Positions 3,115-45,540 of a DNA stretch of 64,000 nucleotides are shown here, in pieces; position 1 is the stretch's first letter, and every line of letters begins with the position of its first letter. The notes beneath the pieces are model-generated. The model was not told the origin of the DNA and did not search any database. It was given only the letters and a program-made list of their open reading frames with translations. This DNA comes from Candidatus Omnitrophota bacterium (GTDB lineage: Bacteria > Omnitrophota > Gorgyraeia > JABMRG01), in the NCBI GenBank assembly GCA_028716165.1, contig JAQUQI010000002.1, positions 83,228 through 147,227 on the forward strand. Direction: 5' to 3'. Position numbers and translations under genes: made by a program.

Positions 3115-4074
3115 TTGTATAATGTTTATATGATTATTTTATATTTATATGTAATATTTACGTTTTTAAGCCCGCACGCGGCCCCTGCCCAAGCGCAAGG
3201 CATTATCAGCTCTATGCGTGCCATAGGCCTTGAAAGGTTATTGAGGCCGGTATCAGCCGCTTTAGCGCGCGGCGTTGAAGATCTGGCCGGCGCAAGTGAG
3301 CTGCCATCAGTTTTTGTCTCTCCGGCCGTTACAATAGAACGCAATCCCTTATTGGAAGTATTAGCCATACTGGAAGAGCATTTTTATGATACAAGTGGGT
3401 GCGTAACGGTCCAGGATGTCCGTCGGTTTTGGCATGTTGACGGACGCGGCCTGCGGTATGTGGCGGCAGATATCAGGACAGCGCTTAGACTGCTGGAACA
3501 ACTGGGCATATTATCCAGGCCCTTATCCGGCGCCGGTTTCCTCTTTACCCATAGTCCTTATAAACAACTGAACGAATTTGAACGGGATAGCCTCAAACGA
3601 AAACTTGCCGCCGCTCAAAAACACAGCGGTATATTATACGATAACGCGGGATACGGCACATATATAGCCCGGCAGCTTAGTTTCTATTTTAAGCTATTCC
3701 CATCGGATTCAAAAGAAGAATTTATGTTCAATATCATATGCAGTGTGATATGCGACAAAGAGAAATTTGACCGCTTTGTCATGATGTTTGTCCGCGCGCG
3801 CAACGAATTTGAACTGGATAATATAGTCCAATTTGCCCGGGATTCAAAAGCCGATATAGGCATTCTGATATTGCGTTATATATTCAGTAATTTTGACACA
3901 GACGATGAAATTGTTGAAGGCCTGGACCGGTTGGTGCGGATGCCGGGCAACCAGGGCGCGGGTATTAGGGATTATCTTATTGAGCGCCTGGCCAAAGACG
4001 CGAATTCAAAAAACGCGCGCGCGTTACCGCGGCAAAATATTTCAATCCTGAAAATGTTACAAAGCCTGGCCTGA
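3115..4074 (+). CDS. hypothetical protein (start uncertain; the first ~25 codons are AT-rich and may be non-coding, with an alternative start near 3214)
   Basis: 319-aa ORF with coding-like composition after residue ~30; no recognised domain. Confidence 0.5.
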   Translation: MYNVYMIILYLYVIFTFLSPHAAPAQAQGIISSMRAIGLERLLRPVSAALARGVEDLAGASELPSVFVSPAVTIERNPLLEVLAILEEHFYDTSGCVTVQDVRRFWHVDGRGLRYVAADIRTALRLLEQLGILSRPLSGAGFLFTHSPYKQLNEFERDSLKRKLAAAQKHSGILYDNAGYGTYIARQLSFYFKLFPSDSKEEFMFNIICSVICDKEKFDRFVMMFVRARNEFELDNIVQFARDSKADIGILILRYIFSNFDTDDEIVEGLDRLVRMPGNQGAGIRDYLIERLAKDANSKNARALPRQNISILKMLQSLA

Positions 4075-14415: not shown

Positions 14416-15069
14416 TTATAATAGTTCCGCTTCCATTCTGTCTATAGTTTTTTGAACATCATCTATTGTCTTTGATGAAAGTATATTTGACGTCCTGGCT
14501 TCGCTGACAAGGCTTTTAAGCGTTGTCAAAAATCTCTTTAGCAGGGTAAGCCGTTTTTTCTGCCACACCTCTTCAGGCTCCAACTCTTCACGTTGTCTGA
14601 TAAGAGCTGTCAGGTCTTTTTTGACAGAACCGGCGTCTTTGCCCATTTCAAGCACTGATCTTTTTATCTTCGCGTAGTCATCCCGGTTTAGATTTTTTTT
14701 GTTACTGGCAAGGCGCAGGACATCAACCGACTCATAGCTGGGCAAGAGCGCCGTGTCCGCTTCATCGTTATAATCTTTTTTAAGATAAAGAGGGTCTTCT
14801 TTTTCCAAAAAAGAATATGACCTTAACAGCTTGATGGCCGTCTGTTTACGTATGCCTATCTCTTTCGCTGTATATACTTCAAACTTATCGTAACCCCATC
14901 CTTTGTATAATTTATCTTTCCACACGCTGTATAGGGCCTGTGCCAGGTTTATCCATGAGGTCTTGAAATTTTTAGCGGATTCCAGTATGCCATGCCTTAT
15001 GCCGGACTCTTCAAACTGCGACATCTTTTCTTCTATTATTTTTATGGATTTGGTTTTTATATCGCTCAT
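14416..15069 (-). CDS. hypothetical protein
   Basis: 217-aa ORF with coding composition; no recognised motif. Confidence 0.55.
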   Translation of the reverse strand: MSDIKTKSIKIIEEKMSQFEESGIRHGILESAKNFKTSWINLAQALYSVWKDKLYKGWGYDKFEVYTAKEIGIRKQTAIKLLRSYSFLEKEDPLYLKKDYNDEADTALLPSYESVDVLRLASNKKNLNRDDYAKIKRSVLEMGKDAGSVKKDLTALIRQREELEPEEVWQKKRLTLLKRFLTTLKSLVSEARTSNILSSKTIDDVQKTIDRMEAELL

Positions 15070-17172: not shown

Positions 17173-17994
17173 TTAATTATTGGCGGGCGAGAAATTAGAG
17201 CATGGTTGTTTTTTGGCGCAAGGTTTTTTATTCGCGCGTTCAGCCTTTTTGGCTTCAACACAGCCCTCTTCTGGGGCATAAGGCGCCTCTTGTGGTTGAT
17301 TCATCCTGAATTCCGCCCTGCTTTTTTTGTAGCTTGATCTTATCTGTTCTATGCGGGCCTCAATAGCCTGTTTTTCCTTCTGATACTCCATTCTCAACGC
17401 GTGTTCTTTGACTTGGGCGTCGGAGAGTATCTGGTTTTTTAATTTGCTTTTATTGGCCATATCGGTAATCTGTTCTATCTGGCTGTTTGCGTCTTCATAT
17501 ATCGCGGCAATACCGGCGTGCAATTTATCTTTCGCCGCCTGCACATCCGCCCTGCATACGTTTATCTCTTCATTATATGCTTCGTATCCGGGGTCACCGG
17601 CAAGGCGGTCTATTCTTTTATTCAGGGCCTTTATGGATCTAGAGCATTTTTTGTGTGATTCTTTAAATCCATTGTATTCCTGCCTGACAGGCGCGTATTT
17701 GACGTGGAAATCCTGTTTTAACTGTGATTGCCTTCTTTTGGACTCGCGGATAAACGTCTTTTCATCCATGTGAGATTTGCATAATATAAGATCCTGCCTT
17801 AATGATATATCCGCTTCATTGAATTCCTTTGTTAGCGCTTTGATCCTCTCCTTATATACCGTTATTTTTTCTTCAAGCTCGGCAAGTTCTTTTTTTGCCG
17901 CCTCCAGTTCGCTCGTATAATCGTTCTGTGATAAGGCATAGGAAGCCATGCCGAACAACAGCATACAAACGACAGCAAAGGTTTTTTTAAACAT
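17173..17994 (-). CDS. secreted coiled-coil hypothetical protein (start at MFKKTF with AAGGAGGG RBS)
   Basis: Signal peptide FAVVCMLLFGMASYALSQ followed by a long heptad-rich charged region. Confidence 0.6.
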   Translation of the reverse strand: MFKKTFAVVCMLLFGMASYALSQNDYTSELEAAKKELAELEEKITVYKERIKALTKEFNEADISLRQDLILCKSHMDEKTFIRESKRRQSQLKQDFHVKYAPVRQEYNGFKESHKKCSRSIKALNKRIDRLAGDPGYEAYNEEINVCRADVQAAKDKLHAGIAAIYEDANSQIEQITDMANKSKLKNQILSDAQVKEHALRMEYQKEKQAIEARIEQIRSSYKKSRAEFRMNQPQEAPYAPEEGCVEAKKAERANKKPCAKKQPCSNFSPANN

Positions 17995-18103
17995 ACACCC
18001 TCCTTGGTTTAATTTTATAAGATATTTTACCCTCGTATTCCGCGATTTACAAGAAAATTCCGTCATAAGCGTAATATAAATGGCAGTTACCTGCCCGGTT
18101 TTT

Positions 18104-29637: not shown

Positions 29638-30249
29638 CTATGAATGAAGTCCGCGCCCGCGCGCTTTACAGAAATCAAGAATATTAAGCCCTATCTTTTC
29701 AAAAAGTTTGTTCAAGAGCCCCATAGGCAGGCCTAAAATATTGAAATACGAACCCCTGATATCGTCATAAAGTATTGATCCTATGCCTTCTATTGAAAAT
29801 CCTCCAGCCTTGTCATATGGTTTTAAGGCGTTAAAATACCTGACAAGCTCTTCTTGCCGGAGCTTTTGGGCGTATAAATAACTTGTTTCTGCCCCGCACG
29901 CTTTTTTACCGGAAGGCGTATCCAAAACGCAGACTCCGGAGCAGATGGCCAGTTTCTTACCGCTGAAATCACGGAAAAGTTTTTTTGCCTCTTCTTTGCC
30001 CTCCGGCTTGCCTATGAGCTTTTTGCCCGACATGACAAGGGTATCTGCCGCGATAATGATATTATTTTTGTGTATTTTAGCGCAGGCAAGGGCTTTTCTA
30101 CGGGCGTTTTCCGTCACATTCCATCGTAACGGGCGGTTTTGACAATGGGCCTCTTCGGCATTGGTAATATGAATTTTGTGCCGTATCCCGCAGGAAAAAA
30201 GTATTTGAGACCGCCTCTTTGAACCTGATGCCAGGATTACGGTTTTCAT
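29638..30249 (-). CDS. maf: Maf-family nucleoside-triphosphate pyrophosphatase
   Basis: N-terminal ILASGSKRR and D..V...GK, YxDxxG-type Maf motifs. 203 aa. Confidence 0.85.
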   Translation of the reverse strand: MKTVILASGSKRRSQILFSCGIRHKIHITNAEEAHCQNRPLRWNVTENARRKALACAKIHKNNIIIAADTLVMSGKKLIGKPEGKEEAKKLFRDFSGKKLAICSGVCVLDTPSGKKACGAETSYLYAQKLRQEELVRYFNALKPYDKAGGFSIEGIGSILYDDIRGSYFNILGLPMGLLNKLFEKIGLNILDFCKARGRGLHS

Positions 30250-30695
30250 CAGCGGGGCCCGTTGTTTTCATGTTTCAGGCACGAGTCCGGAATCCACGCC
30301 TTTTCAATTCCTACGGCTGTTTCCGTGTAGCGGGATGTGTAAAGAAACTTTATCTCTTTCCAGAGGCTTGCTTCAAATTCCCGCTTCTGGCCGGTCAGGA
30401 CAACTATGGTGTCAGGCGCAAGCTGTGTCATCTTGGCCCCGCCGGGGTAATTATATACGGTTATGTCCATGTCCATATACAGCCCGTCGCCTGTATGGAC
30501 CTTACCGTTTACCAATGCCGTCGGATGGTCCTTAACCAACTGCTCATACTCTTCATTGAGCTTTCTGTCAGAACTGTATCGCCTGATGCCTGTAAGCATT
30601 GATTCCCATGTTTCTTGCGAGCCCGATGTCACGGCGCCTGACACGGCAGGAAACAGAGCAATCAAAAGGACGGATAATAATATCAGTTTAATCAT
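30249..30695 (-). CDS. secreted hypothetical protein
   Basis: Signal peptide LILLSVLLIALFPAVSGA. 148 aa. Confidence 0.5.
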   Translation of the reverse strand: MIKLILLSVLLIALFPAVSGAVTSGSQETWESMLTGIRRYSSDRKLNEEYEQLVKDHPTALVNGKVHTGDGLYMDMDITVYNYPGGAKMTQLAPDTIVVLTGQKREFEASLWKEIKFLYTSRYTETAVGIEKAWIPDSCLKHENNGPR

Positions 30696-31751: not shown

Positions 31752-32291
31752 TTATGATGACCTTCTTTTTCTGTCAATATCGTCTAATATGTTTTTGATG
31801 TCTCTGTCTGCCGACCGCGCGGCCATATTGCAGATGTAAATAAGAACGGAGAATTGCCAGCAATCCTCGGGCCCCATAATAAGGCCGGTATGCACGTCTT
31901 CTCTTTTCTGTAATTTTTGCCTGAATTTATCCTCGGCCTTTTTGAGGCTTGCTTCCATCACGTCCAGAGACTGGACCGTATTGTTATATTTGTATGACGG
32001 AAAGCGTATGCCTCTTATGAACAGAAAGTTTGTGACCATAGATTCCGTGGTGTCCATTTCTTCTTCAAACTTGAAGCCTTCAAAATACGGCATATTGCCC
32101 GGAAGTATTATGGCGGGTTTTTCGGCATAGACCTTGCCTTTTCTTACCACGGTATCACCTATGTTGACCGCTGATTCAGCCAGAAATATATAAGGCATTT
32201 CAGTGGTCGCGAAGGTAAGAAGCGGCTGTATCCTCGGCCTTACTATCTCGGTTTTTTTAAGGGCTTTTTCCCATCTATCCATAATGTCCAT
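31752..32291 (-). CDS. hypothetical protein
   Basis: 179-aa ORF in a tightly packed operon; no recognised motif, and no CIG-type motif that would mark an AMMECR1 domain. Confidence 0.5.
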   Translation of the reverse strand: MDIMDRWEKALKKTEIVRPRIQPLLTFATTEMPYIFLAESAVNIGDTVVRKGKVYAEKPAIILPGNMPYFEGFKFEEEMDTTESMVTNFLFIRGIRFPSYKYNNTVQSLDVMEASLKKAEDKFRQKLQKREDVHTGLIMGPEDCWQFSVLIYICNMAARSADRDIKNILDDIDRKRRSS

Positions 32292-35473: not shown

Positions 35474-36163
35474 TCATGGCCTTAAGCCTATATCCGCTAT
35501 CCTGATATCGCCGCAAAGGCCGGGCCCGTCGTTTTGATAAAAACCTTTTTTCGCCAAACCCATCGTCACGGTCATATCGGCTTTTACCGCTTCCGCGCGC
35601 TTTTTGCCTGAATCAGCATCCAGGCCCGAAGGGATGTCCGCGGATATAGTGTATGCCGGGCTCTTATTGATAAGGGTTATGACATCTTTGTAAATGCCTT
35701 CTGCCTTGCCGTTAAAACCCGTCCCGAATACGGCATCAATGATTATATCCGAATGAGCGGGTTTTTTCAAGGTATTAATATCGCGGCTCGTTAAAATCTC
35801 ATGTATGTTCCGGTTTATCCGTTTCAGGGCAAGCAGATTAAAATATGAAATACCGCGAACCTGCGCTTTTTGGCACATAAGATATATGTTAACATCGTAA
35901 CCCGCGCTTAAAAGATACCTGGCGCATACCAGTCCGTCGCCGCCATTATTGCCTTTGCCGCAAAATATACAAACAGATACAGCACCTTTATTTTTATCTG
36001 ATTTTTGGATAATATCAAAAACTGCCGCGGCAATTGCCACGCCCGCGTTTTCCATAAGTATGGCGGCAGGTATGCCGTAAGTATTAATGGTTTTTTTATC
36101 AATCGCCCTTGCCTGGCTTTTTGTCAGTAATTTTTTTGGTTTATGGAATAATGGTTCGCGCAT
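35474..36163 (-). CDS. nnrE: NAD(P)H-hydrate epimerase (YjeF N-terminal domain, NnrE)
   Basis: CGKGNNGGDG motif and D.VFGTGF. 229 aa. Confidence 0.8.
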   Translation of the reverse strand: MREPLFHKPKKLLTKSQARAIDKKTINTYGIPAAILMENAGVAIAAAVFDIIQKSDKNKGAVSVCIFCGKGNNGGDGLVCARYLLSAGYDVNIYLMCQKAQVRGISYFNLLALKRINRNIHEILTSRDINTLKKPAHSDIIIDAVFGTGFNGKAEGIYKDVITLINKSPAYTISADIPSGLDADSGKKRAEAVKADMTVTMGLAKKGFYQNDGPGLCGDIRIADIGLRP

Positions 36164-36235: not shown

Positions 36236-37120
36236 TTAAGAAGATTTTTCGTTATACAAAAATTCGCCTTTTTTATAATCATTTCCCTCGCCTTTTACCT
36301 CTTCTACTATAATTGGATTTTTAACGGCATATCTGTCACAGCGCGTGCCTGTTATCTGCCATGATATCTGTTGGTTTGGCCTTCCTCCGGCTATGGTGAA
36401 AGAATTATTCTTTACCCCGTCTTTTATATGCAGGCTTGGCGCTGGCGCTCCCATGGCTGTTAATTGATAGCGAAAGTCTTTATTTAATGCCTCAAAATAA
36501 TCCGGCAGTATTACAACCGCTTCGCCGTTTTTATCAAGGGTAATTGTGCCGTCATAGATATTTTTCATGTCCGGCGATTCAACAAAACTATGCCGTAATA
36601 TTTTGTTTTCCGGATCTAATGGATGGTCAATCAAAAAAGAACCGGCGGTTTTTGTTAGTGTGCCGGTTACCTGCATATTTCCATTTCTTATAAGAGTGGT
36701 ACGATTTAAAAGCATTAGTACTGTTGCTGTTGAGGTATCATACCAATATAAGCCTATTGGTCCCACTGAACATGATCCTAATAGCATATTTAAATCGGGA
36801 AAGTTTATAGCTGTACCTGTCCCATGGCTTAACCGTATGGCCTCATAGAACATTCCCGGCACTATGGCCGTATCAGGCACAATCTCAAGCTTCGCGTTAG
36901 GGCTTGCTGTCCCGATACCGATACGGCCTTCAACAGTAAGCGTTCCGTCTGTAGTTGAAGCCGTGTAGTCGCTTCCTACTGAAAGCGAGTCGTATTCGCC
37001 GTAAGGGGCGGGATAATAAGTGGTTAATGTTATGGTTTCTTCGGCCTTAACGCCCGTGCCTGTTAAAAGCATAAGGCAGAATACCGGAAACATCGTAAAC
37101 ACGGCTTTTTTATCATACAA
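36236..37120 (-). CDS. secreted beta-fibre-like protein, paralog A of the tandem pair (translation start compromised: TTG at 37120 or internal ATG at 37093)
   Basis: After the signal peptide, the N-terminal ~75 residues are near-identical to the downstream paralog. Relative to paralog B, a 1-nt deletion puts its ATG out of frame. Confidence 0.6.
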   Translation of the reverse strand: MYDKKAVFTMFPVFCLMLLTGTGVKAEETITLTTYYPAPYGEYDSLSVGSDYTASTTDGTLTVEGRIGIGTASPNAKLEIVPDTAIVPGMFYEAIRLSHGTGTAINFPDLNMLLGSCSVGPIGLYWYDTSTATVLMLLNRTTLIRNGNMQVTGTLTKTAGSFLIDHPLDPENKILRHSFVESPDMKNIYDGTITLDKNGEAVVILPDYFEALNKDFRYQLTAMGAPAPSLHIKDGVKNNSFTIAGGRPNQQISWQITGTRCDRYAVKNPIIVEEVKGEGNDYKKGEFLYNEKSS

Positions 37121-37188
37121 GTCCCTCTCTATTTTAAGATGAATATGTATTACCTGTTTTAAGCCTGTTAATACATTCATAAATATGC
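36913..37188. repeat. direct repeat copy 1 (~275 bp, ~92% identical to 37862-38135), covering the 5' coding region, RBS and upstream region of paralog A
   Basis: Aligned by eye against the segment upstream of paralog B. Confidence 0.8.
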
Positions 37189-37196
37189 GTAGCAGT

Positions 37197-38066
37197 TTAC
37201 GGCTGTTTATCAAGTTTTTGCCTTAATTCAGTTACTTCGTTTTTTAAAATGTCTATTTGCGCCTGAAGTTCTTTTACGGCATTGACTAAGACGGCGTTCA
37301 AATTCCCGTAAGAGATTCCTTTTTCACCGTCTTTTCCGCTTACGATTTCAGGCACTACCTGTTCCATTTCCTGCGCTATAAATCCGATTTGCCTGGAGCC
37401 GTCTTTTTTTATGGTGAACTTTTTTGGCTGTATCAGCATAATCTCATTAAGGCCGTAATCCAAGTCGGTAATATTTTCTTTAAATGCTATATCAGAGGCG
37501 TTTGTCCATGCCCCGCCCGCACTGCAGTATGCCCCGCTTGCCATATGCAGAGGATACGCCGGGCTTGTTGTCCCTATACCGACATAACCGGTATTAAGTA
37601 TTGTAAGCCTTGCCTGCGGCCCTGTGGCATAAGAATTTGTTGTTGCCAGATACATATGCGTGCCGGCGGCATTGTCCTGGTGGACATAGATACCTGCCTG
37701 CGCGCTGTCTGCCGTCGACTGGCTGAATGTTATGGCGTTTCTTGTATTGCTTGTAAGACTGCGCACTTGTATAGCGCCCCTGTTGGTACTGCCGAAATTA
37801 GGAGCTGTATAAGAGCCTTCTCCCCCATATACTACAAGCGGGGCGTTCGGTGCCTCTGTCTTAATACCGACACTGCCTTCAACAGTAAGCGTCCCGTCTG
37901 TAGTTGAAGCAGTGTAGCCGCTTCCTACTGAAAGCGAGTCGTATTCGCCGTAAGGGGCGGGATAATAAGTGGTCAAGGTTATGGTTTCTTCGGCCTTAAC
38001 GCCCGCGCCTGTTAAAAGCATAAGGCATAATACCGGAAATATCGTAAACACGAACTTTTTTGTCAT
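37197..38066 (-). CDS. secreted tail-fibre-like protein with C-terminal intramolecular-chaperone (Peptidase S74) domain, paralog B
   Basis: Signal peptide MTKKFVFTIFPVLCLMLLTGAGVKA. C-terminal ...SDIAFKENI...IGFIAQEMEQVVPEIV...LNAVLVNAVKELQAQIDILKNEVTELRQKL matches the S74 chaperone domain (RLKENI / GFIAQEV..V.PE / L..AIKEL coiled coil). Confidence 0.7.
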   Translation of the reverse strand: MTKKFVFTIFPVLCLMLLTGAGVKAEETITLTTYYPAPYGEYDSLSVGSGYTASTTDGTLTVEGSVGIKTEAPNAPLVVYGGEGSYTAPNFGSTNRGAIQVRSLTSNTRNAITFSQSTADSAQAGIYVHQDNAAGTHMYLATTNSYATGPQARLTILNTGYVGIGTTSPAYPLHMASGAYCSAGGAWTNASDIAFKENITDLDYGLNEIMLIQPKKFTIKKDGSRQIGFIAQEMEQVVPEIVSGKDGEKGISYGNLNAVLVNAVKELQAQIDILKNEVTELRQKLDKQP

Positions 38067-38135
38067 ACGAGCCTCTCTTTTTAAGATGAATATGTATTGC
38101 CTGTTTTAAGCCTGTTAATACGTTCATCAATATAC
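37862..38135. repeat. direct repeat copy 2 (pairs with 36913-37188)
   Basis: See copy 1. Includes a conserved upstream element TAAGATGAATATGTATTRCCTGTTTTAAGCCTGTTAATAC. Confidence 0.8.
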
Positions 38136-38860
38136 GGGTGAGACCTCAAAATATACGCGACTGATATGCCTTTTTCTTCATCGGACTTAAGCACTTCAAG
38201 GGCCCTTTTCATGCCGTCAGGGTCAAAGCCCGCGCCCGTGGTATATTTTATGGCAAGTTCATCGGCCTGGTATTCATCTTTTCTGCTATAGCCTAACTGG
38301 ACGAGGTTAAAGGCGGTCGCGCCCGCGTAAGCGGCATAACCTGCCTGCTTACTTTTCTTATCATCCTGATTATTCGTATATGCCATAAGCGCTACCGTTG
38401 AGAGCAGTTGATAACCCAAAGATGCCTGCATTTTTTTTACGATATGCCTTGCCGCGACATGGCCTATTTCGTGGCCCATAACAGCGGCAAGCTGATCGTC
38501 GTCAAGCCTGTCATATAAGCCCCTGTAAATATACACATGCCCGCCCGGTATGGTAAAGGCGTTGAGCGTTTTATCCTCTATAAGATAAAATTTATATTCA
38601 AGGTCTCTTCTGTCGGATGCCGCGGCCACTTTTTTGCCTATATTCTCAAGGCGCGATATGGAAGAAGTGTCTTTGCTGATTTTATATTTTTGTTCAATCT
38701 GCGCGGCCGCGCTTTTTCCTATGACTGTCTCCGATGCCGTGTTTATGAATATGGCCTCATTGCACCCTGTAGCGGGATTAAACGTCGTCGCGCATCCGCA
38801 GGCCAGGAGCCCTGATAAAACAACCGTGCCGATAAAAAGAATTTTTGTTTTTTTTGCCAT
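38081..38860 (-). CDS. M48-family zinc metallopeptidase lipoprotein (BepA/LoiP-like)
   Basis: Lipobox LLACGC. HEIGH zinc motif in AVMGHEIGHVAARH. Downstream E for the third ligand. Confidence 0.8.
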   Translation of the reverse strand: MAKKTKILFIGTVVLSGLLACGCATTFNPATGCNEAIFINTASETVIGKSAAAQIEQKYKISKDTSSISRLENIGKKVAAASDRRDLEYKFYLIEDKTLNAFTIPGGHVYIYRGLYDRLDDDQLAAVMGHEIGHVAARHIVKKMQASLGYQLLSTVALMAYTNNQDDKKSKQAGYAAYAGATAFNLVQLGYSRKDEYQADELAIKYTTGAGFDPDGMKRALEVLKSDEEKGISVAYILRSHPYIDERINRLKTGNTYSS

Positions 38861-42166: not shown

Positions 42167-42976
42167 TTACCAGCGGCCCGATGCTCCTCCGCCGCCGGAA
42201 AATCCTCCCCCGAAACCGCCAAACCCGGAACCGAACCCGCCTCCAGACCCGCCCGGGCCATACCAGTAACCGCCGCGCCTTCGTCCGTTCGGCGTTGTCA
42301 GAAAAAAGAACAAAAGTCCTGAACGCATGCCGAATAAAAGGACAAACAGCAGTAAATATGCCAATGACGAGAGCGGTGACGAGCGTTCTTCTGTCTGTTG
42401 CCGTATGGCAGACATGTTCTCATCAAGGTCAATATTGACATTGTATTCTTTGGCAATAAGGTCAGTGATGGCCAGGATCCCTGCCAGTACCCCTTTTTCA
42501 TAAAGCCCGTTCCTGAATTGTGGGATGATAATTCCGTGGATAATATTGCTTGCAATGGCATCAGGTATCGCCCCTTCCATGCCGTATCCTGTTTCTATCC
42601 TGACGGCTCTGTCAGCCATGGCAAAGAGCAGTAATACCCCATTATCCGAGCCTTTTTGGCCTATGCTCCATTTCTCAAAAAGCCCTGCCGCGTATTGCTC
42701 TATTTCAAGCGGGTTGGTTGTATTAACAATGACAACAGCCAGCTGGGCTCCGGTAAGGGCTTCTATTTGGCTGGCAATGGAAGCGCCTGTTTGCACAGCC
42801 TTTTGGCTTAATGTGCCCGTATAGTCATTAATATAACCGGCGGGTGCCGGGTATGTTTCATTTTCTTCTGTGTATGATGATGAAACAGCAAGAAAAATCA
42901 GGCACAGTATTCCTGCCGCGCTTAAAAAAGGCCTCTTTAATAAAGCTAAACCAAATCTTGCGTCAGGCCTGTTCAT
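42167..42976 (-). CDS. TPM-domain (YgcG-like) protein with C-terminal TM helix and Gly-rich tail
   Basis: TPM phosphatase-like core YINDYTG...LS...AQLAVVIV. C-terminus GGGFGSGFGGFGGGFSGGGG. Confidence 0.8.
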   Translation of the reverse strand: MNRPDARFGLALLKRPFLSAAGILCLIFLAVSSSYTEENETYPAPAGYINDYTGTLSQKAVQTGASIASQIEALTGAQLAVVIVNTTNPLEIEQYAAGLFEKWSIGQKGSDNGVLLLFAMADRAVRIETGYGMEGAIPDAIASNIIHGIIIPQFRNGLYEKGVLAGILAITDLIAKEYNVNIDLDENMSAIRQQTEERSSPLSSLAYLLLFVLLFGMRSGLLFFFLTTPNGRRRGGYWYGPGGSGGGFGSGFGGFGGGFSGGGGASGRW

Positions 42977-43719
42977 AAAACATTATCCGCTATTATGGAT
43001 AGTTTTTCAAGCTGTTCTATAAAACAAAACAAGGCTTCTTCAAGGTTATTGCCGTTGATTTTACCGTCATTTCTTTTGTCCGCGAGTATGTCAGAAAATA
43101 TATCTGTATCAATGTCAAACGCCGTCCCCATGGCCCTTATATTGCCTTCTTTTGTTTGTAAGGCAGGAATGCCCTTTACCCTTAATAATGCTTTGAAGAC
43201 AGGCAATAATCCCGCGAATGAATCCTTTATCAGGGCTTCAATACCTTTACGCCTTTGGCCTATTTCAAGGTAACCCTGCCGCAGCCTTACAAGTTTTCCT
43301 TTTATCTGTTCTTCACATATAAAACGCAGGTTTTTGGGGTCAATATTTATACCGGAAATAATGTCCTCTCCGTATATAAGTATATTATGTTCTTTCATTT
43401 CCATAAACTCTATCGGGAAGGTGTCAAGAGATGACATTATATAGTCCGGCGTAAGGAAAAGAGGCGCGTTAATCCCGCGCCTTATGCCGTCATTGAGTAT
43501 ACCGAGGCTTTTTTTAAGTTCAACGCGGCTTATATGACTGAAAATGACCGCGCTGTTTATGTCGGAGGAGCCCTTTTTGAATTCTTTGCCGGCACAACTG
43601 CCGTATATGAATATAGAAACGATTTTGCCGCTGTGTAATTGCAGGAACCTGTTGAAGTATGGCCCGATCAATTTATAAACATAAACGTCTAATAAGCCGG
43701 TATTCTTTAATTCTGGCAT
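42973..43719 (-). CDS. hypothetical protein with a degenerate polymerase-beta-type nucleotidyltransferase-fold N-terminus
   Basis: IYGSCAGKEFKKGSSDINSAV resembles hGS-x9-13-DhDh, with the second Asp replaced by Asn. First gene of the LemA/TPM operon. Confidence 0.4.
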   Translation of the reverse strand: MPELKNTGLLDVYVYKLIGPYFNRFLQLHSGKIVSIFIYGSCAGKEFKKGSSDINSAVIFSHISRVELKKSLGILNDGIRRGINAPLFLTPDYIMSSLDTFPIEFMEMKEHNILIYGEDIISGINIDPKNLRFICEEQIKGKLVRLRQGYLEIGQRRKGIEALIKDSFAGLLPVFKALLRVKGIPALQTKEGNIRAMGTAFDIDTDIFSDILADKRNDGKINGNNLEEALFCFIEQLEKLSIIADNVL

Positions 43720-43944: not shown

Positions 43945-45540
43945 TTATGCCGCCAATAACGCGTTTTCATACGAATTTATAAATTCCATATGCTCCTGGC
44001 TGTAATCTGATATTATCTCAAACCTCTTGTCTTTTAACAACATGACAAGGGCCTCTATCAAACCTTGCCTGCTCCATGCTATCAAGTCTTCTTCGGCGCT
44101 GGCAAAGACCCTACTCTGGCTTATGTTATTATTAAGCATGAAACCCGCTATTATCAAAGCCGACTGGTCTGGCGTTATTGATGTTTGCTTGAATACGTAA
44201 TTTTCAAATATGTTTTTGTCTATGCCTAATTGGCCTAAAAATATATCCGCAGGCATATTTTCTTTGTTGACTAAATAGAACTTTCTGATATCTCCGGCAG
44301 ATTGTTTTATGACAGCTTGTAAAGCCGGGCTTTCCTTTAACGCGTCGGAATAGACAATTACAGCCTGCGCATTAAGGGGCTTGGCTATATTGTCCTTTGT
44401 AGTAGGCGCGTATGCAAGCAAAGCCTGTGCCATCTGAAGCTGGGCCTCATATTCCGCATCCGGCAGTCTTTCAGGTGTAATGCCGGCTGAAGAGGATTTC
44501 GTCTCCGATATATCTTCTTTCGCGGACAGGGTATACTTCTCTGTAACCGGCTTTTTGGTATCACCGGGGATATTACTGATAGGCGATATATTAGGTATGG
44601 TTGACCTTGGCTTTGTAGAAAATACTTCCCGAATGCCTATTATTTTCTGAAATTTAGCAAAGGCGTTGTTTCTAGGTTGAAGCAAATTCCGGCCCAACGC
44701 TACTTCTCCTGAATGGACGGAGATCAGTGTTACATTCTTTAATTCATCCGGTGCCAGAGGTATATCCGAAGCCAATATTTCAACAATACCGTTTTCTGGT
44801 ATTGTATATTTCTTATTGATTAACCCCCTTGGGCTGTCAGGCGCGTATCCTTGCGGTAGAAGGCGAATATAGAAGTTGATACCGGCCTGTTCTTTGGGAA
44901 ATACCACTTGTAATGTTTTATATCCGCTAAAGTTAAAATTGCCGACTGAAAAACAACTGAACATGCCCTTGTCTTCGCCCCATCTGATAGGTTTATCAGT
45001 TATGACTTGTTCCATGACACATTCAACAGCCTTAGCGCTTGACGGCTCCTCTTGGGAATCCTTGATTAACCTTTTATTCACGTTATATTGCAGAATAGGT
45101 ATGCCTGGTTCCATTTGCGCAGTGAGCCATGTCCAAAAAAAGACGCGAGATAAAATAGCCCAGGGGCTTGGCTTTGCTGATTTTAGGGCATCGGATACGG
45201 CATTGCTAAGCTCTTGACGATTATTGATATTAACGACAGTTCTGCTTTCTGGGCTGATTATTTTTATCTCACTATTTGTTACCGCCTTTGCGGATAAGCG
45301 CCACCCTTTAAAAACCTCATTATTAAGAGCCCAAGCTAATGCCCAAGCGTTGAGGGGGGCTTCAAGTGTGAGTGTAACAATTTTCTCGTTTAGTTCCTTT
45401 TCTATGCCTTTCATTACTATCGGTCCCGCAATCGGAGCCCTTAATGTCCATTCTTGGGCCAAGCCAGGGGTTGCAGACAAAACCGTATTATATAAAAAAG
45501 AAAGCACAATTAATAATGAAACAATTCTTTTGTAGCGCAT
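43945..45540 (-). CDS. large secreted hypothetical protein (orphan)
   Basis: Signal peptide IVSLLIVLSFLYNTVLSATPGLAQE. 531 aa. No recognised domain. Confidence 0.6.
   Translation of the reverse strand: MRYKRIVSLLIVLSFLYNTVLSATPGLAQEWTLRAPIAGPIVMKGIEKELNEKIVTLTLEAPLNAWALAWALNNEVFKGWRLSAKAVTNSEIKIISPESRTVVNINNRQELSNAVSDALKSAKPSPWAILSRVFFWTWLTAQMEPGIPILQYNVNKRLIKDSQEEPSSAKAVECVMEQVITDKPIRWGEDKGMFSCFSVGNFNFSGYKTLQVVFPKEQAGINFYIRLLPQGYAPDSPRGLINKKYTIPENGIVEILASDIPLAPDELKNVTLISVHSGEVALGRNLLQPRNNAFAKFQKIIGIREVFSTKPRSTIPNISPISNIPGDTKKPVTEKYTLSAKEDISETKSSSAGITPERLPDAEYEAQLQMAQALLAYAPTTKDNIAKPLNAQAVIVYSDALKESPALQAVIKQSAGDIRKFYLVNKENMPADIFLGQLGIDKNIFENYVFKQTSITPDQSALIIAGFMLNNNISQSRVFASAEEDLIAWSRQGLIEALVMLLKDKRFEIISDYSQEHMEFINSYENALLAA

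Follow-up and report, generated by a model that had tools for sequence, protein, structure and literature searches.

By sequence and fold comparison, the closest described counterpart of the genes reported here is the mosaic adhesive trimer (MAT) fibre superfamily of Bdellovibrio bacteriovorus. MAT fibres comprise S74 and NS74 subfamilies, have a conserved N-terminus, and swap their tips (Caulton et al., 2024; PMC10769870). Phage S74 tailspikes and fibres, such as the K1F endosialidase and the T5 L-shaped fibre, are also similar in part, having in common with B the Peptidase_S74 domain, the Ser-Lys motif, and a beta-helical segment ahead of the cleavage site. In the G segment of phage Mu, the C segment of P1, and the shufflons, site-specific inversion switches between 3′ tips that are encoded next to one another and that attach to an unchanging 5′ part. 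Here we describe two adjacent genes, A and B, in a 64,000-nt stretch (the window) of contig JAQUQI010000002.1 from a Candidatus Omnitrophota bacterium (assembly GCA_028716165.1). From the listing of open reading frames (ORFs) and their strands, the genes for an M48 metallopeptidase, B, A, and a YjeF_N-family protein follow one another on the minus strand (Table 1). We consider it likely, with a probability of about 0.72, that B and A are chromosomal genes for small Sec-exported fibres (mini-fibres), whose architecture follows that of the Bdellovibrio MAT fibres and whose tips are swapped at a chromosomal slot.

Protein B is identical to a database entry named 'tail fiber domain-containing protein' on a 257-kb contig of a Candidatus Omnitrophica metagenome-assembled genome (MAG). 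We read its signal peptide as MTKKFVFTIFPVLCLMLLTGAGVKA, followed by EE. A short motif follows, and then a beta-helical tip module delimited by two VGI(K/G)T..P...L loops at residues 66 and 162. An earlier reading of the window from its sequence alone (the sequence-only reading) had placed an S74 chaperone domain at the C-terminus, and a hidden Markov model search bears this out, with Peptidase_S74 (PF13884) matching residues 191–242 at 49.2 bits (E 6.6e-13), well over the curated threshold of 22 bits. The SDxxxK motif is SDIAFK in B, with the serine at S191 and the lysine at K196. Among 76 homologues, K196 is invariant and S191 is conserved in at least 90%. B has 39 PHROG matches, and tail-fibre or baseplate families make up most of the 25 listed. 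In the AlphaFold2 (AF2) monomer model, the chaperone has a predicted local distance difference test score (pLDDT) of 95–98 over residues 200–289, with a C-terminal helix at residues 253–286. The best Foldseek match of B is the MyRF ICA domain (7dc3, E 4e-5, target-normalised TM-score 0.63), followed by the Bdellovibrio fibres 8ond and 8onc. A phmmer search of PDB sequences likewise gave Bd3182 (8ojn, E 8.9e-6), Bd2133 (8ond), and Bd1334 (8oml) of B. bacteriovorus. The alignment of B with Bd3182 is gapless from the second VGIGT loop of B to the serine of the cleavage site. The two loops of B are 96 residues apart, as are the capping loops R656 and F752 in the Bd3182 tip (PMC10769870). Judged by these matches, the signal peptide of B is followed by a short motif, a single tip module of the Bd3182 type, and an S74 chaperone.

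The reading frame of A spans 36236–37213 on the minus strand, directly after B. Across the signal peptide and N-terminus the two proteins are identical at 64 of 77 residues (83%), in keeping with the proposal of two adjacent paralogous genes with a common signal peptide and N-terminus; beyond this part they have no similarity. The shared 5′ cassette runs from the ribosome-binding site (RBS) through the signal peptide and the motif EETITLTTYYPAPYGEY to the first VGIGT loop; past it, the bodies are unrelated. The cassette is part of a direct repeat with a period of 947–949 nt. The repeat falls into two blocks, 36886–37111 against 37835–38060 (226 nt, 89%) and 37132–37189 against 38079–38136 (58 nt, 93%). 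As a single gapped match, 36886–37189 and 37835–38136 are 89.9% identical over 306 columns (E 1e-112). The repeat had been described as ~275 bp long; it is real, with a slightly greater length of ~300 nt at ~89% identity. The longest stretch identical between the copies is 55 nt, the second copy begins 8 nt past the B stop codon, and no third copy was found anywhere in the 64-kb window.

Protein A is identical to an entry on the same contig, 'hypothetical protein PHV77_02050', which is annotated with 314 residues from ATG 37180. It has the signal peptide and N-terminal motif of B and one VGIGT loop (residue 67), then an unrelated body and a C-terminal beta-sandwich, which was modelled with a pLDDT of 89–98 (AF2). 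This C-terminal domain is covered by no Pfam or NCBIfam model, and an NCBIfam model was found for neither A nor B as a whole. Among the 8,000 candidates scored, the domain has more than 6,673 homologues, many of them 60–70% identical, and the named ones belong to Omnitrophica, Patescibacteria, and Bacteroidota. All 21 invariant residues of this family are kept in A. The sequence-only reading had treated A as a divergent copy of B, which does not hold, since the body of A is unrelated to B and closes with a highly conserved domain of its own, whose homologues number in the thousands. Phage relatives of the A tip are real but rare. They were found by tblastn in 10 of 50,697 phage records and by Foldseek against viral models, and they include a minor tail protein of Arthrobacter phage Mufasa8 (32–39% identity) and the P-SSM2 tail fibre. 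The A tip resembles the receptor-binding tips of phage tail fibres and tailspikes. Unlike phage tips of the Pam1 tailspike, R2-pyocin fibre, or AP22 gp53 type, the A-tip family lies overwhelmingly outside cultured phages (more than 6,600 homologues against the 10 phage records).

The likeness of A and B to the MAT fibres extends over several features. Both sets of genes are chromosomal, encode signal peptides, contain phage-like parts, and lie outside a prophage. In both, a common N-terminus is combined either with an S74 class that has SDxxxK or with a class that has beta-sandwich or lectin-type tips. The V-G-x-x-x-x-P-x-x-x-L capping loops of the MAT fibres correspond to the loops at residues 66 and 162 of B and residue 67 of A. 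The alignment of B to the Bd3182 tip extends as far as the catalytic serine, the loop spacing is the same, and in both systems tips have been exchanged in evolution. The lineage is different, being Omnitrophota here, and the tip type of A is absent from the description by Caulton et al. A further difference is that in Omnitrophota we find exchange at one fixed chromosomal slot together with tandem arrays whose 5′ DNA is homogenised.

The evidence for exchange comes from related loci. L013, a GTDB representative Omnitrophota MAG from a sister species, and the short contig L005 both have the order PGI-M48-B-YjeF_N-cupin-Ysc84-EndoIII and no gene A. Their B is 80% identical to B of the window, and its stop codon overlaps the YjeF_N start. 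In a blastn comparison, collinearity between the window and L013 (81.6%) breaks off at 37210 and resumes at 36149 (78.5%), and the ~1.06-kb segment in between is missing from L013. A more distant relative, L003, whose M48 is 80% identical, has the same flanks with the order M48-(A-type, 386 aa)-HAD-YjeF_N. L010, a strain closely related to that of L003 and from JGI metagenome 3300077567 (L003 is from the related 3300077566), has M48-(a third fibre type, 428 aa)-HAD. L010 and L003 are 91% identical through M48, the spacer, and the fibre gene up to codon ~75, and 85.6% identical again from just past the fibre stop. Between these points (738–2024 of L010, 8001–9161 of L003) the bodies are unrelated, one having 428 residues and ending in a coiled coil and the other being the 386-residue A-type. 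This difference is a clean allelic tip replacement. The arrangements in L013, L005, L003, and L010 together indicate that the interval between M48 and YjeF_N is a slot in which the fibre body is replaced. The comparison shows fibre bodies to have been exchanged by recombination within this slot, with the cassette as the left homology arm and the break at the cassette end near codon ~75.

The two cassette copies of the window are 88.5% identical to each other and 74% and 68% identical to L005. They also have a common signal peptide that is unlike that of L005. The copies are closer to each other than to L005, which points to copying or conversion after the split from the L005 lineage. The comparison also shows the window genome to hold two slot alleles in tandem, the ~1.06-kb segment having been added after B. 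At the head of the added segment stand a copied M48 3′ end, spacer, and cassette, so the repeated upstream region is a passenger of this event rather than a dedicated regulator. Two routes fit the data. In one, a unit comprising the M48 3′ end and the whole of B was duplicated in tandem, and its second body was then replaced. In the other, a donor allele of the M48-A type was inserted after B by illegitimate recombination. The earlier proposal of a cellular fibre or adhesin locus is supported, with duplication and recombination as the shaping processes.

The region upstream of the two genes had been taken for a conserved regulatory region, and this interpretation has to be dropped, since the ~58 nt in question are the 3′ coding end of M48 with a short RBS-bearing spacer. 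The first 56 nt of repeat copy 1 are the last 19 codons of M48 (…HPYIDERINRLKTGNTYSS*), and then come 14 nt with GAGAGG and the ATG of B. Compared with the orthologues in L005 and L013 (…INRL), M48 is here extended at its 3′ end by 8 codons (38081–38107, …INRLKTGNTYSS). The loss of one T in a TTT run carries the M48 frame on into what was intergenic spacer, to an end 14 nt upstream of the B start. The LLACGC near the N-terminus of M48 resembles a lipoprotein box. The inverted repeat GTATTA-N16-TAATAC, also noticed earlier, is exact in the A copy, whereas the B copy reads GTATTA-N16-CAATAC. We rejected it as an RNA or regulatory element; it is absent from the orthologous loci L005 and L003, and its region is no stabler in folding than shuffled sequence (z −0.36 and +0.13). 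A sigma-70-like TTAACA-N18-CATATT lies within both repeat copies with a score of 9/12. The region has 16 sites of this type against 11.1 ± 3.2 expected, which is within chance, and a promoter here is only a possibility. The intervals separating M48, B, and A contain no terminator-like site on their coding strand, and this and the close gene spacing suggest that B and A may be co-transcribed with M48.

The translation start of A deserves separate consideration. As the sequence-only reading had noticed, a 1-nt deletion, which sits just after AAAAAAG, puts the cassette ATG (37116) out of frame. The two starts it then listed for A, a TTG (37120) and an internal ATG (37093), both exist, but the list was incomplete, as ATG 37180 is in frame as well. 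ATG 37180, the start chosen by NCBI, lies 16 nt past the B stop and has no Shine-Dalgarno (SD) sequence. TTG 37120 has the GAGG core of the RBS just 3 nt upstream. ATG 37116 is the best placed, 7 nt past the GAGG core, but opens a reading frame of 17 codons. A start at ATG 37093 would give a signal peptide without a charged start. In the frame of ATG 37116, codons 2–4 form A_AAA_AAG, a slippery heptamer of the dnaX type, and the RBS lies 11 nt upstream of it. A −1 slip there would enter the A frame and yield MIKKAVFTMFPV… (MIKK-AVFTMFPV…), which is near-identical to MTKKFVFTIFPV… of B. In E. coli dnaX, an SD-like element at about such a distance upstream stimulates −1 slippage. No unusual RNA structure was found downstream of the heptamer (z −0.95), and the same heptamer is present in B merely through encoding KK. 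We therefore mention a frameshift rescue of A as a speculative curiosity and not as a claim.

These features raise the question of whether A is a pseudogene, that is, a recently acquired or duplicated fibre gene silenced at its start by the deletion. Such a gene might be expected to look like A in its out-of-frame ATG, in its TTG so close to the GAGG core, and in its absence from the sister species. However, the frame is open over 885 nt, every invariant residue of the C-terminal family is present, three in-frame starts exist (ATG 37180, TTG 37120, and ATG 37093), and a −1 slip would rescue the frame. In addition, cassette codons 27–64 differ between A and B by 4 synonymous changes and 1 non-synonymous change. 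Both the purifying selection on the cassette core and the unimpaired tip domain speak for a gene that functions now or did so recently, and we regard the pseudogene explanation as unlikely, though it is the strongest of the alternatives.

Less likely still is a recombination switch, in which a RecA-type crossover between the direct repeats would delete B, fuse the intact start of B to the A body, and produce cell-to-cell variation. The ~300-nt direct repeats contain the 55-nt identical run, and a crossover 3′ of the indel would, as read from the sequence, repair the A start; the more distant relative L003 has M48 with the A-type fibre only. Such a deletion is irreversible, so it would not be phase variation of the usual kind, and the 89% identity of the repeats lowers recombination rates. 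Furthermore, no recombinase or invertase was found among the 20 flanking ORFs scanned (25.9–50.4 kb). In contrast to the inversion cassettes of Mu, P1, and the shufflons, the repeats here are direct and each gene is complete with its own copy of the cassette. The variation appears to arise by homologous or illegitimate recombination over evolutionary time and not by a reversible switch. The idea of a shufflable or phase-variable 5′ cassette therefore stands in part. The cassette is supported as a recombination module on evolutionary time scales by the tip replacement between L003 and L010 and by the 1.06-kb gain relative to L013, whereas phase variation finds no support: the repeats are direct, no invertase was found among the scanned genes, and recombination would be a one-way deletion of B.

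A metagenome assembler could also have joined two strain alleles, M48-B-YjeF_N and M48-A-YjeF_N, head to tail. The slot is polymorphic among relatives, repeats of such a kind confuse assemblers, and the exact B protein has no match in the contig index. The M48-like piece before A makes this explanation very improbable. Read in the M48 frame, the piece has 5 differences, and the 4 non-synonymous ones fall on P, Y, D, and R of PYIDER, which are conserved in every M48 orthologue recovered; the piece is therefore not part of a working M48 gene. It is a decaying relic, carried along when the cassette was copied. The abrupt end of the homology 8 nt past the B stop fits such a relic and not a second working M48 end. 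A chimera would need a k-mer common to the 3′ ends of B and M48, and none is evident. Tandem arrays with common 5′ ends also recur in independent assemblies.

The chromosomal setting of the genes is cellular. Our Pfam scan took in 44 ORFs spread over 1.2–63.4 kb of the window, and none of the 44 matched a phage family; the Pfam matches were to cellular families, and several ORFs had no match. The families near the locus include PGI, PIN/PhoH, LemA, TPM, cupin, Ysc84, endonuclease III, radical SAM, Maf, and MGDG synthase, and those further out include BipA, Dus, DinB, RlmN, an RND efflux pump with a TolC-like protein, and two-component regulators. Among the same ORFs, no adjacent phage structural or assembly genes of a prophage or tailocin were found. 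The cellular flanks are kept in L003 and L013, and the immediate flanks also on the short contigs L005 and L010. The DNA pattern of the N-terminal motif had no match in 2.9 million viral contigs, as opposed to 86 metagenome loci. In contrast to phage S74 fibres, B has a Sec signal peptide, lacks a particle-attachment N-terminus, and lies between cellular flanks that are conserved across species. Two earlier claims are thus upheld, namely that the locus has cellular neighbours and no phage genes around it and that B is a secreted protein with a phage-type S74 domain at its end and outside any prophage. The non-cassette part of A (36236–36886) has a GC content of 40.4%, against 46.2% in the B body and 44.1% in the window, which is a weak hint of an outside origin. 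A and B could also be what is left of a prophage, a tailocin, or a contractile injection system, as tail-fibre genes whose products belong, or used to belong, to a phage-like particle. This is the least credible explanation of all. The PHROG matches of B, the A tip domain in Arthrobacter phage and cyanophage tail proteins, and the GC content of the A body (40.4% against surroundings of 44–47%) would agree with it, but A and B each carry a Sec signal peptide, a feature not present on tail fibres that are assembled into particles, the scanned ORFs over 62 kb include no phage gene, the slot has conserved cellular flanks in four other loci, and the motif pattern is absent from the viral contigs.

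The motif shared by A and B defines a wider family. It has the form (signal peptide)-x-E-x-I-T-L-T-T-Y-Y-P-A/S-P-Y-G-x-Y, represented by TAYTAYCCNGCNCCNTAYGGNGARTAY and by a YYPSPYG variant. It is present in 41 of the 239 collected homologues, whose C-termini are of the S74 type in 13, of the A-type in 15, and of other types in 13. The residues common to family members at the N-terminus are ~20–55. With the exact back-translated motif we found 86 metagenome loci with 90 ORFs, the motif lying at a median of 32 residues from the start. The complete motif ORFs mostly have ~140–630 residues, 15 of them being of the S74 type and 52 having other endings. TTYYPAPYGEY heads many small proteins, most of them with predicted signal peptides. 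There is no Pfam or NCBIfam model for the motif, and it was not found in the literature searched. A profile search with a 57-residue N-terminal segment returned only fragments of at most 100 residues, of which eight were named, seven as Omnitrophica/Omnitrophota and one as Elusimicrobia. The same profile in a full-library HMMER search returned 84,247 cluster representatives, with top matches of ~1,900–7,900 residues and up to 70 repeats. The profile was swamped by the generic GNVGIGT..P...L fibre repeat, so this count is uninformative on the N-terminal motif. The second half of the cassette, G-N-V-G-I-G-T-x-x-P-x-x-x-L, is this generic repeat, which also occurs in giant proteins (P0289–P0438).

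Tandem arrays recur in the family. At least two motif genes lie on one strand in 9 of the 86 loci (two or three each), and in 8 of these 9 they are in tandem and 0.5–1.9 kb apart. The 5′ ends of adjacent motif genes are 74–99% identical, mostly from ~20–26 nt upstream of the start, and diverge after ~+120 to +540. The array loci are L008 (6001–7791), L067, L059, L042, L061, L091, L022, L023, and L083, with three genes within 1.8 kb in L067. L008 has the arrangement of the window at a different site. There, upstream of rpsO-pnp, an S74 gene is in tandem with a gene for 222 residues that has a precomputed PF26696 "PTL_trimer" match, and the pair is 92% identical over 223 nt (−41 to +182). In another Omnitrophica genome (L001, 8001–8660), a motif gene for 219 residues (P0081) lies between ilvN and ilvC in the branched-chain amino-acid biosynthesis cluster. 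In L011 a STAS-domain gene and crcB flank a motif gene, and one unannotated gene lies in the same interval. The small motif genes seem to have been inserted among housekeeping genes, and the family loci reveal no conserved partner gene. A functional partnership with M48 was rejected, as the adjacency is limited to this lineage and family members elsewhere have other neighbours.

Table 1. Features of the mini-fibre locus, with positions in the window
Feature	Position	Strand	Description
M48 metallopeptidase gene	38081..38860	(-)	259 aa; Pfam PF01435, E 5.5e-38
Gene B	37197..38066	(-)	289 aa; start 14 nt downstream of M48
Layout of B	37197..38066	(-)	Signal peptide 1–25 (…GVKA/EE); motif EETITLTTYYPAPYGEY 26–42; tip module; S191/K196; S74 chaperone
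Predicted S74 intramolecular chaperone/autoprotease part of B	37200..37496	(-)	Residues 191–289
Gene A	36236..37120	(-)	294 aa from TTG 37120; 314 aa from ATG 37180 (NCBI annotation, P0009)
Out-of-frame ATG and A_AAA_AAG	37105..37116	(-)	ATG 37116–37114, heptamer 37111–37105; speculative
C-terminal domain of A	36290..36665	(-)	~Residues 153–277, ~125 residues, IDHPLDP…FRYQLT…SWQ.TG.R
YjeF_N-family gene	35474..36163	(-)	Pfam PF03853, E 5.7e-45; conserved downstream boundary of the fibre slot (synteny L003, L005, L013)
Repeat copy 1	37835..38136	(-)	M48 3′ end 38081–38136, 14-nt spacer with GAGAGG RBS 38067–38080, B codons 1–77
Repeat copy 2	36886..37189	(-)	Non-coding M48 3′-end relic (~37134–37189), RBS region with 3-nt insertion, A 5′ cassette
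~1.06-kb segment missing from sister-species locus L013	36150..37209	(-)	M48 relic, cassette copy 2, A body, 72-nt spacer

Seven sizeable ORFs of the window have no significant Pfam match (43945–45540, 42973–43719, 31752–32291, 30249–30695, 17173–18066, 14416–15069, and 3115–4074). The one at 42973–43719, with 248 residues, is immediately upstream of TPM-LemA, and L003 has a gene for 253 residues in the matching position.

On the likeness to known fibre families, A and B would be exported by Sec and would then trimerise. The chaperone of B would cut itself off at S191, and the stubby fibre that remains would have ~165 residues. All fibres may be docked to a common element of the cell envelope by the strictly conserved N-terminal motif, a role proposed for the invariant MAT N-terminal domain (PMC10769870). 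The variable ends would bind ligands, probably glycans, on other cells or surfaces. Several points weigh against this reading. A and B have 289–294 residues and no long stalk, which makes them ~3–4 times shorter than the MAT fibres of ~600–1,100 residues. Their N-terminal module of ~20–40 residues, the TTYYPAPYGEY motif and one loop, stands against the defining ~130-residue beta-rich domain of MAT, compared here by its published description. The AF2 monomer models are poor over the N-terminal motif and shaft (pLDDT ~37–73), and no confident fold such as a MAT-type ~130-residue domain was predicted at the N-terminus of either protein (37–73). Trimerisation, autocleavage, surface display, and ligand binding are all predicted from sequence, and Sec export leaves the crossing of the outer membrane without explanation. 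The translation start of A is compromised, and A may be weakly expressed or inactive. By analogy, A and B probably work like MATs, but they should not be filed as MAT members without a direct comparison of the N-termini.

Part of this picture was already known, as B was annotated as a tail-fibre-domain protein, and cellular S74 fibres with tip swapping have been described in Bdellovibrio. The novelty lies in the miniature size of the fibres, a motif specific to the lineage, a large tip family that lacks annotation, and clean evidence both for a slot where tips are swapped and for tandem arrays with homogenised 5′ ends. No general principle is changed. A broader and much more tentative idea, which we think is probably not correct, is that the TTYYPAPYGEY cassette marks an undescribed display system of mini-fibres, found mainly in Omnitrophota with one named Elusimicrobia match. 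In such a system, a constant anchor would carry tips that are swapped at slots and in arrays to track host or prey surfaces in ultra-small, possibly host-dependent bacteria, and in the present genome the deletion of B would be a one-step switch that repairs the A start. If true, this would be a cellular counterpart of the phage host-range cassettes.

Omnitrophota are uncultured and mostly ultra-small, and it is suspected that they prey on other cells or live on them (PMC10066038). Host-dependent traits have been proposed for them, without mention of such fibres in that work (PMC10066038), and a role of A and B in recognising a host or prey would fit these traits. In studies of partner recognition in Omnitrophota, attention has so far been on pili and giant ORFs. 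The present locus suggests that these bacteria also carry small MAT-like fibres made from phage tail-fibre parts, with an N-terminal motif specific to the lineage. It offers candidate proteins for host recognition, a short motif by which the repertoire can be found, and an unannotated tip family of more than 6,600 members that deserves a family model.

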